This document shows positions 48,001 to 54,000 of a stretch of 54,741 nucleotides of DNA, piece by piece (positions within the stretch are counted from its first letter, which is position 1; each line of letters opens with the position of its first letter). Source of the DNA: an uncultured archaeon. Its GTDB lineage: Archaea; Iainarchaeota; Iainarchaeia; Iainarchaeales; 1-14-0-10-31-34. The stretch lies in the NCBI GenBank assembly GCA_964442255.1, contig CAYTYC010000007.1, positions 1 to 54,741 of the forward strand. Reading direction: 5' to 3'. Position numbers: made by a program.

Positions 48001-51000
48001 ACAAGTGTGTGCCGGTTTCAGGCGCAAATATTCAAGGAAAAAGAGCCGGAAGGAAAAGTTGAGCAGGAAAGCCCGGGCCAGGAATAATTCAGCGCCCGAT
48101 AGATCTCAGTCCTTAAGCGGTCTTTAATTTCTTTCACACGTTTGGGTTCTTTTGCGTGTTGCTCCATTATAACTTCATCAGGAGGCTTTCCATTGATTTT
48201 AACAGAATCCATTTTCGGCTCAAGAGCAGAATCCAATTTAAAGGCGACTGCCACCGCTTTCCCCCCTAAAAAATTCAGGGATATGTTCAGTAAAAGAATA
48301 AACCCCCTGACTAGTTTCTTTCACAGTTTTGCCAATTCCGGGGTAACACGCCTTAGCCTTCAGGCTTTTATCCAATAAAGCCTCCTTACCTGCCTTCTTT
48401 GCCCTCCCTCTTTTCGCCCTGTTTAACATTTCCCCGGCTTCATCCGCGGGAGTCCTTCGCATTCTTCTTTTTTTAGGCAAATCAATCCCTAAACGGAGCA
48501 TTCCCGGGGGTCAACGCCTTTTTCCTGCATGCATTCAAGGTAAGAATCTAATTGCTCTCCCTGGAGCTTCTCCTTAATTATGCATTCAGCCAGTTCCCCG
48601 CGCAACCCCCGGTCAAGCCGGGGCTCAATAAAGTAATGCGTCAGGTAAAAGCCCGCAATCAATCCAACAATGAACACAAACAAAAGAAACAATTTGCTTA
48701 AGGAAAAGCTTCCAAAACCAAACCCCTTTTTGGAAAACTTTCCCCGGGGCGCACCACCATAATCTTCATCCCCCAAATCAATGTCGTCATCATATTTTTT
48801 TCTTTTCGGCATGCAATCACTCAGTCAACGGTTTCTTTTTTCCGGATGAAAGCAATACCACCCTCGAACCCGGGCTTTCATCCAGTAAAGTATAGTTTAA
48901 GTGGTTATTAATTTTAACTGCAAAGTCTTTCACAGAGGAGTGAAAAGGCATGTTCTCTTCCTTTAAGCGTTTCCTGCTTTCACCAACCCAAACATACCCC
49001 TTTACCTCCACAAAATCGGGCCCGGCTTTTTGTATTAACTCCGCGAACTGTTTTTCTTTTTCCATATTCATTTTCCCGATTGCTGTTACCCTGATTACTT
49101 TTCTCGTGGAAAGGGAAGGCATCAGCTCCAGAGAGCGGTTGAATTTCTCCCAGGAACCCTTAATTATTGGGGCATTCAACCGCTTGTGCGTTGCTTCATC
49201 CACTGCCTCCAAAGAAAGGTAAAGCTGCGTGGGCAGGGAAATATTTTCCAAAGCTTCAGGGTTCAGGCCGTTTGAAACCAGGAACGTGGAAAAATTGCGC
49301 TTTTTGTATTCATCTATCAGTTCGGAAAGGAAAGGGTAAAAAGTGGGTTCGCCTGAAAGGGAGATTGCAACATTGTTCGGGGAGTTCGCTTCCAAAAGCT
49401 TTTTTTCGCCGATTTGTTCTTTCAATGCGCCGTAGCCGGAGAGAAGCTTTCTCTGCATTTCAATTGAGAGTTCCGCTATTTCCTTTGGGTCTCCCTTTGG
49501 CTCAATTTTTTCCTTGAGCGGGATGTGCGGGCGCCAGCAGAAAATGCATTTCTGCCCGCAATATGTTGTGAGGGGAGTCATTTGAAGGCAGCGGTGGGAG
49601 TTAATGCCGTAAAATTTCTGCTTATAGCAGGCCTTGTTCCCGGTGAGGGAGGACTTGGTGTAATGGCACAATTTAACCGCAGAATGGCCGAACAATGCGT
49701 AATGCTGGCGCCTGAGCTTTGCGGTCACTTCATCAGGCCAGTAGTTTTCAGGTGAAAGCATAAGGGAAAAAGGGCGGAAAAGGCTTAAATCCTTTATGTA
49801 GAATTAGGTTTTTTGAGGTAAATTTATATATTAGAAGGCACTTTTATAGATACAATATTTTCAGGGGTGAAAAAGAATGTATAAGTACACGATTGCAAGG
49901 CAGCTGGCAACAAAAAGGGTTATAACAAACAGGGGAGACGAGGTAGGAAAACTGTCGGATTTGCTGATAAACGAGAATACCGGGGAAATTGAAACCCTTT
50001 TGGTTGAACTGGACAGGGACAGCAAAATAGCCAAAGGCGGAAGCCATAAGGACAGGCTGCTGCACATCCCTTACTCGGCGGTCACCGCTGTAAGCGATGT
50101 CTTTATTGTGGACGAACGGGAAATTCCGTCTTCCGCGCATTAATCAGGGAAATCAATTTCCAGCCTGTTTTTTCCTGAAAGGGAAACCTTTTTAGCCATG
50201 GTGTTGCCTTTTGAGGCAAGCAAATTCATCTTATACATAACCTCTTTTTTTCCTTCTGTGCGGAGGTTTTTGGCGGCATCCATTATCTGCTGAAGCTCAT
50301 TGAAATGCGCGTAAATGAATTCGCCTTTTTTCATGTTTTCCCTGCTCTGGTTTTCCAGTTTTTCCCGCGCATTTAGTTGGTCTTCCAAACTCCTGCGCAG
50401 GGCTTCAGTATTTTTATTGAACTTTTTTTCTGTTTCAGCGGTTTTTTCCGAAAGAAACGGCTTTGAAAGCAGCTCATCAACCGCGTCATTCACTGAGGGA
50501 AAAGATTTTTCCGGTTTTCCGAAGACGGAAAGAGGGAAAGGGAAAAGGGTTTCACCGTAAAGCAGGGGACTGGCTTTCTTCAAATCCACGGAGTAATAGG
50601 CTTTCATTTTTTTGGCCAGCCCATTGAGCTGCGGGTTGGAGAGGGTTTGGGGGGAAAGGCTTTTCTCCAGGCCCAAATCTGAAAGGATTTGCTCCGCGAC
50701 TGGGGGGGAAAGATTGACTGCAGCGACAAGGGAGCGGATTAAATCTTTTTTTGAATCAAAAAAGGCTTTTTGCAGCTCTTCAGGAATTGCATTCAACGGG
50801 GAAAGCTTTCCCGAAGAAGGAAACCGGTATTCAGAGCCTTTTCTGGTCTCGCGGTCACTCCACTGCTCTTTCCGGTAGGCTGAAAGCACGCGCATTCCCT
50901 TGTCAGTGAGAACAAAATTTCCTTTAGCGAAAAGCTCCATTATGAGAAAACAGTCCGGGAATTCCAATACCGCAATCCGGTCTGCTTTGTGCTGGAAAAA

Positions 51001-54000
51001 TGAAAGAATTTTTTTTCCCTCAATTCTTTTGCGAAGGAAAGCGGCGTAGCCGGAGGTTGTCTGCCTGGCCTCCAACTTGAATTGCGTGAAGTAAGGGGCC
51101 CGGAGCGTGAGAATAAGGTTTTTTGTTCCCGCCCTTGTGCGGACCTTGAACTTTATCCTGTCATTGCCTAATTCCTGGACTTTGTTTACGTAGGCGCCTT
51201 CCAAAAGAGGAGAGAGCTCTGCAACGAGGTAAGAGAAGGAAATGTTCGGCAATTCCATGGAATAAGGTAAGGAAAGGGGAAGATTTAAATATAATGGAAA
51301 ACTAATGGATAACAGCAAAGTAAGGAACTTTTTTCATTTAAAAGGAGGTAATAAAATTGAATAAATTGGGTCTTGGATTGATTTTTTTAAGCGCGTGTGC
51401 GGCGCTTTTGGTTGGGTGCGTGATGCCGGAAGAAACAACAGGGGCGGCAAGCGACCTGAAAATAAAAAGCGACGGAGACGGGGGAGGGGGCGGTGCAAGC
51501 GGAAAGCCTCCAACAGCGCCAACCAACTTGTTTGTGGAATTGGCTGACGGAAACGAATTGGCGGTGGACCTGAACTGGAATCCAAGTACTGGCGAACCAC
51601 CAATAAGCTATGATGTCTTCAGGAATACGACAGGTTCAACAACAAACTACAATAAAATCGGGTCAACCTCAAGCGCATTCTACACCGACAACACAGTAGA
51701 AGGAGCCCAAAATTACTACTACGCGGTAAAAGCAAAGAACAGTTATGGAAAGAGTGACTACAGCAACCAAGCAAAAGTCTATGTCCCCGCACCAGGTAAA
51801 GCGCCTTCAGCGTTTGACCTAAACGGAATACACCACGACGAAAACACACTATTTAACGAACTTTTCTGGACAGAAAGCAAAGGAACAGCACCAATAAAAT
51901 ACACAGTTTACAGGAAAGGGCCGATAAGTGCACCAAATTACGCAGTAATTGTGGGGCCAATGACCGAAAGAACATATGACGACTTTAACATAACCGACTC
52001 AAACACAACTTATTCATACTATGTTTTTGCAGAAAACCAGTACGGTGACACAAACTCAAACACAATCGGCTTGCCGTAAAAAAGGATTCAATTCCTTTTT
52101 CCCTTTTTTTTATTTTAAATACTTTAAAAGAACCTTCACCAAACCAGGGTGCTTCACGAGTTTTTTTGAGACAATTTTGGCGCTTTCCATCAACTCTTCG
52201 GAGGCAAGCTTCATTATGTCGTCCCCGGTAACCGAGGAAGCAAGGGTTTCAAAGTCTTTGTCAGTCATTTTCTCAAACATCTGGCGCTTCTTCAAAACAT
52301 TTTTCAGTTTTTTTCCCCGCACGGTTTCCCATTCGGCTGTGTAATTGCTTAGCATTGCGTCGGAGAAATCGCCTTTCTCGTGCGCGTCCTTTATCACCTG
52401 CCCCGCAATCTGGCCAGCCTCATACGCCAAGCCCATTCCGCCCCCGTGGATTGGGTTGACCTGGTGTGCGGCGTCGCCAACCACCAAAAAACCGTCCAGA
52501 GTGAGCTTGTCCATGAAGCCTCCAACAGGAACAGCGCCGCCATTCATTTCAATTACAGAGCCCCTGGAAATTTTCGGGCGGGATTCAATCCAGCGGTCCA
52601 GATAGCTTTTCGCCGTAAGCGGGTTGTCCGCCGCAATTCCGATTCCAACGTTTCCGCAGTCCTCGCCTTTCGGAAAAATCCAGACATAGCCCCTGGGCGC
52701 GATTTTTTCGCCAAAATACAAGTTAATCAAGTCCGGGTATTCAATGTCAATGCCGGCCATTTCATACTGGAAGCCGGAGTCAATGTGGTAAAGCGTATTG
52801 AAAGTTTTTAATCCGGCTTTCTGTGCGGTCTGGCTTTCCACCCCGTCCGCGCCAACAACAACATTTGCCCTGAACTCCTGTTCCTCGCCAAGGTGAAGGG
52901 CTTTTACGCCGGCAATTTTCCCGTTTTCTTTTATTAAATCAGTTACAGTTGTTTTGACCCGGAATTTTGCGCCCTTTCCTGCGGCCTCGCGAGCAAGCTC
53001 TTTTTCAAAGATTTTTCTTTCAATAATGTGCCCCGCGACATCATCGCTGCGGACTTCAATTTTTTTTCCGGAAGGCGAGTAAAGCATTGCCCCAAAAATT
53101 TTCTGCACAGCCCAGCTTTTTTTGGGCTCAATGCCCATGCGCTTCAAATGCCCTAACCCAAGGCCTTCCCCGCACCTTACCGGAGCGCCTATTTCCTGGT
53201 CTTTTTCAAGCACAAGGGTTTTCAGGCCAAGGGAAGCTGTTTTCGTTGCGGTGGAAATTCCACCCGGGCCCGCTCCAACCACAATAACGTCAAATTCCTT
53301 CATTTGGGCACCTTTTTTGCTTCACTCATCGCCCCCACAGGGCAGATTTTAATGCAGGCCATGCATTTAATGCATTTTTCGGGGAATACCTTTACCCTGG
53401 TTTCCTGCAGTTCCAATGCAAGCGCAGGGCAGACTGAAACGCAGGCACCGCAGTAAAGGCATTTCTCAGGGTCGCAGACAGGAGGGAAATCCATTAAAGC
53501 CATGTGAAAGAAGATAGTGAAGGGAAATTTTTTAAATGGAATTGAACCCGCAAAAAGCTTTGCTTTTCAAACTCAAAACAGTTAAATTAGGTTTGAAGGC
53601 ATTAAATATTTATGGAATTTGAGTTCAAGGGAAACAAGATTTTGTTTGAAAGGCGGCTTTCAAACCTGGACAAACTGGTTTTAAGGTTCGTGAAAATACT
53701 GGGAAAACTGGAAATAGATTACGTGATAATTTCGGGTTACATCGCCATTCTCTTCGGGAGAAGCCGGAACACGGAGGACGTGGATTTATTCATTGAGGAA
53801 ATGCCTTTGGAAAAGTTCAGGAAATTCTGGAAAGAACTGGAAAAACAGGGATTTGAGTGCCTCAACACCTCAAAGCCGGAAGACGCTTACAGGGATTACC
53901 TGAAAGAAATGGTTGCGGTAAGGTTTGCCGAAAAGGGAATGATTCAGCCGAATTTTGAGCTGAAATTCCCGAAAACCAAATACAACCGCTATTCCCTTGA

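Follow-up and report, generated by a model that had tools for sequence, protein, structure and literature searches.

RqcH/Rqc2/NEMF is regarded as a universal single-chain factor with a coiled-coil hairpin across the subunit interface. Bacterial RqcH (PDB 7AS8, 7AQC, 7OPE) and Rqc2/NEMF (PDB 8AAF, 9GY4) have homologous NFACT-N, helix-hairpin-helix (HhH), CC-M and NFACT-R domains on one chain, in which the M (middle) domain covalently closes the hairpin, and their suggested action is the recruitment of tRNA to the obstructed large subunit and C-terminal tailing. According to a preprint describing the CC-M domain (10.1101/2020.09.03.281279), the bacterial protein contacts the large subunit with NFACT-R at the A-site finger and with the distal CC-M at the uL11 stalk base. 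For Archaea, the ribosome quality control (RQC) pathway is presented in two accounts as still only proposed (PMC9540759, PMC6514570); none of the papers we found characterises an RqcH from archaea, and the presumed function of the parent protein in these archaea rests on homology.

Two further systems bear on a divided RqcH. The eukaryotic proteins CCDC25/Jlp2, which act in ribosome quality control, consist of a stand-alone NFACT-R domain with one coiled-coil helix; this coiled coil lies C-terminal to NFACT-R, and the proteins are described as a partial duplication beside an intact Rqc2 (PMC4075521). Split genes, including those for reverse gyrase, tRNA synthetases and Dph1/2, are described for DPANN archaea, where they are said to occur only in certain lineages whose genomes are especially reduced (PMC6349945). 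RqcH is absent from the described lists of such genes that we found, and we found no earlier literature report of a split RqcH.

Two genes for one RqcH

The window is the whole analysed stretch of 54,741 nucleotides and belongs to a 1.28-Mb, 93.8%-complete, 51-contig draft assembly (G000). An earlier note had claimed that RqcH is encoded here by two unlinked genes, and Pfam and RqcH_arch coverage confirms that the two jointly span the full archaeal protein. The N-half lies in the window and the C-half on contig C8:

50140..51258, minus strand: N-half of the split RqcH (372 aa plus stop; open reading frame and translation)
50809..51258, minus strand: NFACT-N domain of the N-half (about aa 1-150; modelled with a beta-rich fold over aa 1-127)
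50593..50784, minus strand: HhH region of the N-half (aa 159-222; model and alignment with NEMF and RqcH)
50263..50493, minus strand: coiled-coil helix 1 (CC1) of the N-half (aa 256-332; model and conserved seam)
50143..50250, minus strand: N-terminal part of the M domain in the N-half (protein end; secondary structure of the model)
C8:7644-8483: C-half of the split RqcH (279-aa open reading frame; NFACT-R match at C8:7851-8222)

The N-half frame gives 372 aa from an ATG; starting at a TTG 60 nt further upstream would lengthen it to 392 aa, and alignment with relatives supports the ATG as the probable start. The protein matches positions 7-357 of the 456 in the Pfam NFACT_N model (E 1e-35) and positions 3-362 of the 645 in NCBIfam RqcH_arch (198.7 bits), with NFACT-N, HhH, CC1 and the first two M-domain strands in this order. 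A profile built from 25 N-halves finds NEMF, RqcH and Rqc2 with E values between 1e-34 and 1e-22, aligning to residues 4-408 of human NEMF and 12-334 of B. subtilis RqcH. In the NFACT-N domain, D93-R94 aligns with D97/R98 of B. subtilis RqcH, which are reported to serve tRNA selection (PMC8373112); R94 is nearly invariant among the 25 N-halves, and the profile segment '..ldRvvv..' lies opposite '..LDRIMI..' of RqcH and '..VDRIVD..' of NEMF. By alignment the D-R pair is thus kept, and its role in tRNA selection is predicted.

The AlphaFold2 model of the N-half (mean pLDDT 90.5) places HhH helices at 159-167, 173-180, 185-195 and 208-222, followed by CC1 as continuous helices 256-317 and 319-332, about 77 residues in all. 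CC1 carries a hydrophobic seam with 3-4 spacing that is conserved across the 25 sequences, positions 287, 291, 301, 315, 319, 322, 326 and 329 being hydrophobic in 88-100% of them. The M-domain part comprises a helix (337-349) and a beta-hairpin (357-360/366-369) whose tail is modelled with low confidence (pLDDT drops to 62-74). This tail aligns to NEMF 396-408, and all 25 sequences stop within a few residues of the hairpin.

The C-half contains one M-domain strand, coiled-coil helix 2 (CC2), NFACT-R (aa 70-193; PF05670, E 1.2e-33) and a C-terminal beta domain, and matches RqcH_arch at positions 381-644 of 645 (326.5 bits); the start of its frame also matches NFACT_N model positions 363-420. 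The D..H motif of NFACT-R is represented by D103 and H107, both invariant across the 26 sequences compared. Modelled alone, it shows an unstructured head (aa 1-10) and then a 41-residue helix (11-51), in which nine of the 11 a/d-spaced positions hold a hydrophobic residue in 77-100% of the 26 sequences. The nearest full-length relatives found, at 46-48% identity, are titled Thermococcus/Thermococci. Domain order and the D..H and DR pairs are those of full-length archaeal RqcH (NF041120), from which the split form differs in that its coding sequence is divided, within the M domain, over two unlinked genes.

Position of the cut

Both halves together occupy RqcH_arch positions 3-644 of 645. The equivalog cut-off of this model (NCBIfam NF041120) is 400 bits, which neither half reaches alone; a rough sum of their scores is 525 bits, above that cut-off. 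On NEMF the N-half ends at residue 408 and the C-half starts at 461 (505 on Rqc2, 361 on B. subtilis RqcH), so that about 50 NEMF residues are matched by neither half; NEMF carries these extra residues exactly at the archaeal cut site. Full-length archaeal frames (n=26) match both half profiles to their ends with 1-7 residues between them, which indicates that nothing has been lost. The CC-M hairpin is therefore divided between two polypeptides, CC1 and two M strands being encoded here and an M strand and CC2 on C8. The break had earlier been placed in the coiled-coil arm. The NEMF and RqcH alignments locate this clean cut more exactly, at the hairpin tip, within the small M domain.

Distribution and linkage of the halves

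A profile search of the 1.28-Mb assembly found no NFACT_N or NFACT-R matches beyond the two halves, and hence no intact RqcH in this genome. Within the order, 172 of 196 genomes have an NFACT_N match. Among the 150 matches listed, all but one end by model position 378, and the single exception reaches 413 only through three stop codons. NFACT-R is found in 204 of the 215 genomes of the phylum, including 58/58 high-quality genomes, and the 150 matches listed are all in open frames of 190-375 aa. Of the 55 high-quality genomes of the order, 52 have an N-half that Pfam detects, and a lineage profile recovers it in the other three (G024, G026, G180); in family f8 this profile raises detection from 4/22 to 22/22. 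Loss of either half was seen in none of the high-quality genomes examined.

The claim that the split runs across Iainarchaeales is borne out, and its range is wider: it occurs in 5/5 genomes checked from other orders of the phylum, while a second phylum (titled Altiarchaeota) has it in 48 of 55 genomes and a third, large one (titled Woesearchaeota) in 147 of the 150 matches listed. The split is thus old and conserved, as first proposed. It resembles other DPANN splits in that a translation or informational protein is made in two pieces in small genomes (PMC6349945), but it has become fixed throughout one phylum and is common in two others.

Whether the halves are neighbours in closed genomes of relatives, a point that had been left open, can be answered: they are not. 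In ten Iainarchaeota with both halves on a shared contig (G083, G125, G124, G163, G172, G153, G132, G016, G123, G044) the genes are 36-254 kb apart, with 254 kb in G083, 131 kb in G125 and 119 kb in G124 among few- or single-contig genomes. In closed or few-contig genomes of family f8 the distance is 36-85 kb. The halves are 7.4 kb apart and not adjacent in the draft genome G003, and 62-696 kb apart in the other two phyla.

Gene neighbourhoods

The genes around the N-half in the window include:

49877..50143, plus strand: PRC-barrel protein gene, 88 aa (Pfam PRC, E 1.1e-10)
48817..49761, minus strand: radical-SAM wyosine-formation enzyme, Taw1/Tyw1-like (Pfam Wyosine_form, E 8.3e-22; Radical_SAM)
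47476..48087, plus strand: AMMECR1 gene (Pfam AMMECR1, E 1.1e-55), 2 kb from the N-half
52110..53503, minus strand: geranylgeranyl-reductase-like (GGR) flavoprotein and small ferredoxin (Pfam GGR_cat, E 2.9e-23)

The neighbours had been called unrelated, a description that does not hold, since each half has its own conserved neighbourhood. The PRC-barrel gene is convergent with the N-half, their stop codons sharing 2 nt (sequence at 50140-50143), and a homologue stands convergent at the N-half 3' end in 25/25 other genomes of the phylum examined. Of 20 loci taken with 5-kb flanks, 13 have the Taw1-like gene and 10 have AMMECR1 within that distance of the N-half; the GGR/ferredoxin genes lie upstream on the same strand, and GGR is beside the N-half in 13/20 loci. 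An archaeal neighbourhood of NFACT, Mut7-C and AMMECR1 has been described (PMC4075521), and in loci titled Thorarchaeota the full-length RqcH genes have AMMECR1 about 3 kb downstream; AMMECR1 near the N-half is a remnant of this ancestral full-length NFACT neighbourhood.

The C-half, unlike full-length archaeal RqcH, is linked to Cdc48 and not to the Mut7-C/AMMECR1 neighbourhood. An Lrp-like regulator, the C-half and Cdc48 occur together in 23 of 26 Iainarchaeota genomes, and the one canonical Cdc48 of the present genome lies in the C-half block. Subunit C would thus be co-expressed with the only canonical Cdc48 of the cell in Iainarchaeota, and this pair is, within the reach of the literature searches, the first genomic-context link of an NFACT protein to archaeal Cdc48. 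No such linkage was seen in 37 loci of the other two phyla.

A probable two-chain RqcH and its alternatives

We consider it likely that an ancient fission of the RqcH gene gave rise to a two-chain factor held together by an antiparallel coiled coil, and this joining is the most likely mechanism. Subunit N, with NFACT-N (DR pair), HhH, CC1 and two M strands, would bring tRNA; subunit C supplies NFACT-R outright, together with the next M strand, CC2 and the C-terminal beta domain. CC1 and CC2 would pair as an antiparallel two-helix coiled coil, and both chains would complete the M-domain sheet and thereby the CC-M tip, rebuilding the usual RqcH architecture with an open tip where bacterial RqcH and Rqc2/NEMF are covalently closed. 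By analogy, binding to obstructed large subunits and C-terminal tailing are predicted for the split protein. In the models the helices of both halves stand alone with conserved seams, which suggests that they need a partner.

Prediction of the N-half–C-half complex scored 0.53 in three runs (best of three controls, 0.00), in a band where, according to the tool, a prediction is wrong in more cases than it is right unless the pairing was plausible from the outset; contacts agreed to at least 93% and partner pLDDT was at least 81. The mark applied is passed by 116 solved complexes out of 157 and by two of 215 mismatched pairs; among those that pass with 0.60 or less are just 18 of the solved complexes and both of the mismatched pairs. 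The two parts of a split gene can also pass through their likeness to RqcH and NEMF structures already solved. The prediction thus weakly supports the pairing. Against a two-chain factor, the genes are never co-located, which leaves stoichiometric expression without explanation, and Jlp2/CCDC25, which the C-half model resembles, is a stand-alone eukaryotic NFACT-R protein without need of Rqc2. A conserved operon partner, Cdc48, for the C-half and none for the N-half fits at least partly separate roles.

An unlikely alternative is that the halves are two independent factors. The C-half would then act alone on obstructed large subunits like Jlp2/CCDC25, releasing the peptide or recruiting the Cdc48 unfoldase encoded by the adjacent gene, while the N-half would be a tRNA-binding or RNA-modifying protein working with AMMECR1 and Taw1. 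Consistent with this, the C-half model is similar in fold to CCDC25 (TM about 0.5 on target, Foldseek E about 1e-6), and Cdc48 is linked to the C-half only. The invariant H107 ('..YFHA..') aligns to a histidine in NEMF and to a non-histidine in yeast Rqc2, and, going by the D-x-W-F-H motif of CCDC25, it may be the counterpart of Jlp2 H44. Yeast Jlp2 is reported to release peptides independently of Rqc2, with one histidine needed, and Rqc2 to be without that histidine, in agreement with the H107 alignment (10.1101/2025.09.04.673968). Proteins with solo NFACT-R and a coiled coil are moreover reported from all eukaryotes (PMC4075521), and bacterial 50S binding is described as having no need of the NFACT-N/HhH part (10.1101/2020.09.03.281279). 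Against independence, the same histidine in full-length NEMF is no mark of solo function, the other two phyla have split forms with no Cdc48 linkage, and neither half has been lost from a high-quality genome examined. Nor does the C-half have the make-up of a solo NFACT-R protein beside an intact Rqc2: its helix is N-terminal, a genuine CC2, and the genome holds no intact RqcH. Both halves keep the CC1/CC2 heptad seams and complementary M-domain strands, which are meaningful only as a pair.

Protein- or RNA-level rejoining of split genes is known in DPANN archaea, and Nanoarchaeum rejoins one by protein trans-splicing. That the RqcH products are rejoined after expression by a split intein or RNA trans-splicing is very improbable: neither split-intein halves nor extra domains were found at the N-half end or C-half start, and split-intein halves measure roughly 100 and 35 aa. 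The 1-7 residues between the halves on full-length homologues, and a C-half that begins at profile position 1-2, leave no room for them, and alignment thus nearly excludes intein-mediated rejoining. Mis-assembly, a frameshifted pseudogene or contamination, which halves on different contigs of a 51-contig draft might suggest, has a negligible chance and is rejected, since both halves have conserved starts, ends and neighbours and recur as two intact, separated frames in more than 400 genomes over three phyla, including the single-contig G083, G026 and G179.

Implications

The split RqcH bears on annotation, as an equivalog model whose cut-off applies to the whole protein will overlook or misname the two halves. 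An identical cut site in three phyla is also a candidate for a rare genomic change that could inform the debate on DPANN relationships. A more far-reaching scenario, which we hold to be quite improbable as a whole, is a single very old fission in the common ancestor of several DPANN phyla, after which, in Iainarchaeota, the C subunit as the ribosome-binding part joined an operon with Cdc48 and coupled 50S sensing to the unfoldase. If true, the shared cut site would bear on DPANN relationships as such a change, and the sensing of obstructed 50S subunits would be coupled to extraction of the nascent chain by Cdc48 for the proteasome, an archaeal forerunner of eukaryotic Rqc2-Cdc48 RQC with a separately regulated, exchangeable tailing subunit. 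For the family, a natural cut at the hairpin tip, long maintained in hundreds of genomes, would mean that covalent closure of the hairpin is dispensable, and the split form would offer experimenters the tRNA-recruiting module and the NFACT-R module already separated by nature.

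Gene and protein structure

RqcH of this Iainarchaeales archaeon is encoded by two genes. The N-half, in the window, comprises NFACT-N, HhH, the first coiled-coil helix and the hairpin of the middle (M) domain, and the C-half, on contig C8, comprises the M-domain strand, the second coiled-coil helix, NFACT-R and a C-terminal beta domain.

Window 50140–51258, minus strand: N-half of the split RqcH, intact ORF of 372 aa from ATG
C8:7644–8483, GTG start: C-half of the split RqcH, 279-aa ORF around the NFACT-R match

An alternative TTG start 60 nt upstream of the N-half is possible, and 25 relatives align from the ATG. 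The protein matches only positions 7–357 of the 456 of Pfam NFACT_N (E 1e-35), and positions 3–362 of 645 in the NCBIfam archaeal RqcH model (RqcH_arch), scoring 198.7 bits where the model's cut-off is 400. An AlphaFold2 model computed from a 25-sequence alignment (mean pLDDT 90.5; 62–74 in the C-terminal tail) places a beta-rich NFACT-N domain first, followed by the HhH helices (159–222) and one very long helix (256–317 plus 319–332), and ends in a short helix (337–349) and a beta-hairpin (357–360/366–369). D93-R94 aligns to D97/R98 of Bacillus subtilis RqcH, which are described as serving the selection of tRNA-Ala (PMC8373112). Longer relatives of the N-half were not recovered by a word-based search, which by the tool's own account is weak evidence, and full-length relatives were later found via the C-half. 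The runs listed for the window stretch are just two DNA metagenomes, both from one study, and include no RNA run.

NFACT-R has a single match in the assembly (51 contigs, 93.8% complete), the one on contig C8. Residues 1–52 of the C-half also match NFACT_N (model positions 369–420), and the entire ORF matches RqcH_arch over positions 381–644 with 326.5 bits. Modelled alone (pLDDT 90.3), the C-half has an unstructured segment (1–10), a 41-residue helix (11–51), NFACT-R (67–170) and a beta-rich C-terminal domain (196–278), and among known structures its fold resembles NEMF (E 1.5e-17), Rqc2 and RqcH and, more weakly, CCDC25.

Site of the cut and distance between the halves

A profile of 26 C-halves begins at residue 461 of human NEMF, 505 of yeast Rqc2 and 361 of B. 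subtilis RqcH, and the one built from 25 N-halves runs as far as NEMF 408, which leaves ~50 residues between them in NEMF. Of the full-length archaeal proteins, 26 are covered by both profiles to their ends, with a gap of only 1–7 residues in between. The M domain closes the coiled-coil hairpin, forming with it the CC-M element, and contacts uL11/H44 at the stalk base (10.1101/2020.09.03.281279). The profile end points, the short gap and the location of the M domain place the cut in a loop between M-domain strands, with no sequence lost and no room for intein halves.

The halves are unlinked and lie far apart wherever both are on one contig. The distances in Iainarchaeota are 254, 190, 149, 149, 131, 122, 119, 118, 111 and 36 kb (36–85 kb in family f8 of the order), and the closest pair, in one draft genome, is separated by 7.4 kb. 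On shared contigs of two other phyla, that of genome G215 (titles 'Altiarchaeota'; hereafter the second phylum) and that of genomes G219 and G218 (one title 'Woesearchaeota'; the third phylum), the halves are 198 and 696 kb and 62, 207, 282 and 585 kb apart, respectively.

Gene neighbourhoods

The surroundings of the two halves include the following features:

Window 49877–50143, plus strand: PRC-barrel gene, 88 aa, convergent with and abutting the N-half, stop codons overlapping by 2 nt
Window 48489–48812, minus strand: 107-aa ORF, no Pfam match, containing a hydrophobic segment, adjoining Taw1
Window 46985–47437, minus strand: 150-aa basic ORF without Pfam match, adjoining AMMECR1
C8:7108–7647 (758–1297 of fetched locus L001), outside the window: ~180-aa winged-helix protein, directly 5′ of the C-half

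The PRC-barrel gene is convergent with and abuts the N-half in 25/25 other genomes of the phylum, and is present near none of five N-halves fetched from the second and third phyla, for which the flanks extend only ~1.5 kb. Taw1 (13 of 20 loci), AMMECR1 (10/20), a GGR-ferredoxin pair (13/20) and a small conserved ORF are also found near the N-half. The 107-aa ORF is kept beside Taw1 in many relatives, albeit with weak matches (E 1e-5 to 1e-17). Burroughs and Aravind describe a neighbourhood of NFACT, Mut7-C and AMMECR1 across archaea (PMC4075521). The N-half therefore seems to have kept the old locus, and the C-half to have relocated. Mut7-C, the nuclease that this described neighbourhood would lead one to expect, was not seen among the window ORFs scanned.

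The winged-helix gene overlaps the C-half by 4 nt in the window's genome; its product is Lrp/AsnC-like by language-model features, with weak Pfam and NCBIfam matches below the cut-offs. Following the C-half is a CDC48-family ATPase gene (TIGR01243, 1099 bits), which encodes the only canonical Cdc48 of this genome. In the fetched C-half flanks of 26 Iainarchaeota genomes, Cdc48 is present in 23 and the winged-helix regulator in 20, and the block recurs in 30 further loci with a C-half only, some from already-sampled genomes, among 80 loci of a wider scan. Cdc48 lies beside none of 48 full-length RqcH genes. The winged-helix protein could regulate the C-half–Cdc48 pair. Separately, in several Iainarchaeota the Cdc48 ORF 3′ of the C-half measures 930–1230 aa vs the usual ~730 aa (loci L016, L017, L023, L026, L069, L094, L113 and L121), which points to inserted sequence, for example an intein or an additional domain.

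Distribution of the split

Pfam NFACT_N matches 172 of the 196 genomes of the order and, among the 150 matches listed, none continues beyond model position 378 without stop-codon read-through. The genomes missed belong mostly to one fast-evolving family, f8, where Pfam matches 4/22 genomes and a lineage profile 22/22; loss of the N-half in f8, as the Pfam count had suggested, is thereby rejected. The N-half was likewise found by lineage profile in four of five other Pfam-negative genomes, the fifth being an 81%-complete draft. NFACT-R is present in 204 of the 215 genomes of the phylum, including 58/58 of high quality, and all of the 150 matches listed sit in frames of 190–375 aa. The same split is found in 5/5 genomes checked from other orders of the phylum.

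The C-half profile was also run against species-representative genomes, where it hit 80 loci. Both parts lie within one frame at 40 of these (Thermococci, Bathyarchaeia, Thorarchaeota, Hadarchaeota and one 'Nanoarchaeia' by title), the C-half stands alone at 39, some from genomes outside the window's phylum, and at one, in Bathyarchaeia, the two parts occupy adjacent frames. Within DPANN, the survey of the split covered Iainarchaeota and the second and third phyla. In the second phylum (61 genomes), NFACT-R was detected in 55, with 48 frames of 191–415 aa and 7 of 611–691 aa. For the third phylum, 201 genomes were sampled out of a larger group and 165 contained NFACT-R; among the 150 matches listed, 147 frames are shorter than 480 aa and three measure 590–648 aa. 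All short forms fetched from these two phyla (30/30) begin at position 1–2 of the C-half profile and have no N-half within ~4 kb, and all ten long forms match both profiles. Separate N-halves with an identical model end position occur in 15/15 genomes checked in the second and third phyla.

Several individual loci deviate from this pattern. In loci L155 (genome G324) and L156 (G331) of the third phylum, the open frame around the C-half measures 479 and 439 aa, respectively. Some 180–210 residues ahead of the C-half match neither half; they represent a new N-terminal extension or simply non-coding sequence that happens to be open. Outside DPANN, L129 and L125 (titles Bathyarchaeia/Bathyarchaeota) encode RqcH as two adjacent frames, cut in L129 at about the same place as the DPANN split and in L125 further upstream, inside the N-terminal region (approximately N-profile position 260). 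Frameshifts, sequencing errors or recent fissions of independent origin could explain both. Split C-halves also occur on contigs in bins titled Chloroflexi, Thaumarchaeota and Methanosarcinales (L069, L071, L094 and L130), which are probably mis-binned or mis-labelled; L069, L071 and L094 carry the Iainarchaeota-type Cdc48 block, two of the three also with the regulator.

Origin of the split

We inferred a quick tree of the C-region from 96 sequences chosen out of 146, 63 of them split; of the 50 omitted, most were Iainarchaeota-like (in part from genomes already represented), and the rest were extra Bathyarchaeia and Thorarchaeota sequences. Sequences grouped by phylum, and within the second phylum split forms clustered with full-length ones (SH-aLRT 97), beside Bathyarchaeia (98). 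Forcing all 63 split sequences into one clade was 60 log-likelihood units worse and was not rejected (AU p = 0.064). Common neighbourhoods were considered as a sign of a single origin and none was found, with Cdc48 and the regulator beside 0/37 split C-halves of the second and third phyla.

Function of the two halves

We propose that the halves most likely form a heterodimer through an antiparallel coiled coil and a completed M sheet, restoring the architecture of RqcH. Both genes persist throughout, and each half retains just those elements that are meaningful only in combination. The C-half helix bears a seam of hydrophobic residues at a spacing of 3–4 (positions 11, 15, 18, 25, 29, 32, 36, 43 and 46) and the long N-half helix a matching one. 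The M-domain strands are also complementary: the N-half closes with a hairpin, and the C-half opens with a strand of alternating I-E-I-D-L pattern. Complex prediction for the two halves gave 0.53 in three runs (best control 0.00; partner pLDDT at least 81; contact agreement between runs at least 93%), which counts as weak support, as do all passes up to 0.60, and split halves can also pass through likeness to structures already solved for their family.

Alternatively, the halves may act separately as independent factors. Solo NFACT-R proteins, CCDC25/Jlp2, exist in eukaryotes (PMC4075521), and Jlp2 is described in a 2026 preprint as freeing peptides from peptidyl-tRNA without Rqc2, with one histidine needed (10.1101/2025.09.04.673968). 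The C-half has an invariant histidine, H107, which aligns to a histidine in NEMF and to a non-histidine in yeast Rqc2; its equivalence to the histidine required in Jlp2 is a lead only. The linkage of Cdc48 to the C-half alone also fits separate roles. Full independence is made less likely by the pairing elements that each half has preserved and by the strictness with which genomes retain the two genes jointly. Separate roles and a heterodimer are mutually compatible.

In the proposed heterodimer, the helices of the N-half and C-half would pair as an antiparallel coiled coil and the chains would jointly complete the M sheet. Bacterial RqcH contacts the large subunit through NFACT-R and through the distal CC-M at the uL11 stalk base (10.1101/2020.09.03.281279). 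By homology, the C-half would hold the NFACT-R contact, the second contact would be completed by both chains, and tRNA would be delivered by the N-half.

Full-text literature searches on archaeal RqcH/NFACT, DPANN split genes and RQC/Cdc48 returned no earlier report of a split NFACT/RqcH gene, and the split is not mentioned in passages of PMC4075521, PMC6514570, PMC6349945, PMC8407392 and PMC11237513. In the main text of the last of these, a survey of gene fission and fusion in Archaea, the terms NFACT, DUF814, fibronectin and Rqc do not occur; the survey's supplementary tables could list the family. The split RqcH is an altered form of an established factor and adds another instance of gene fission among archaea with small genomes.
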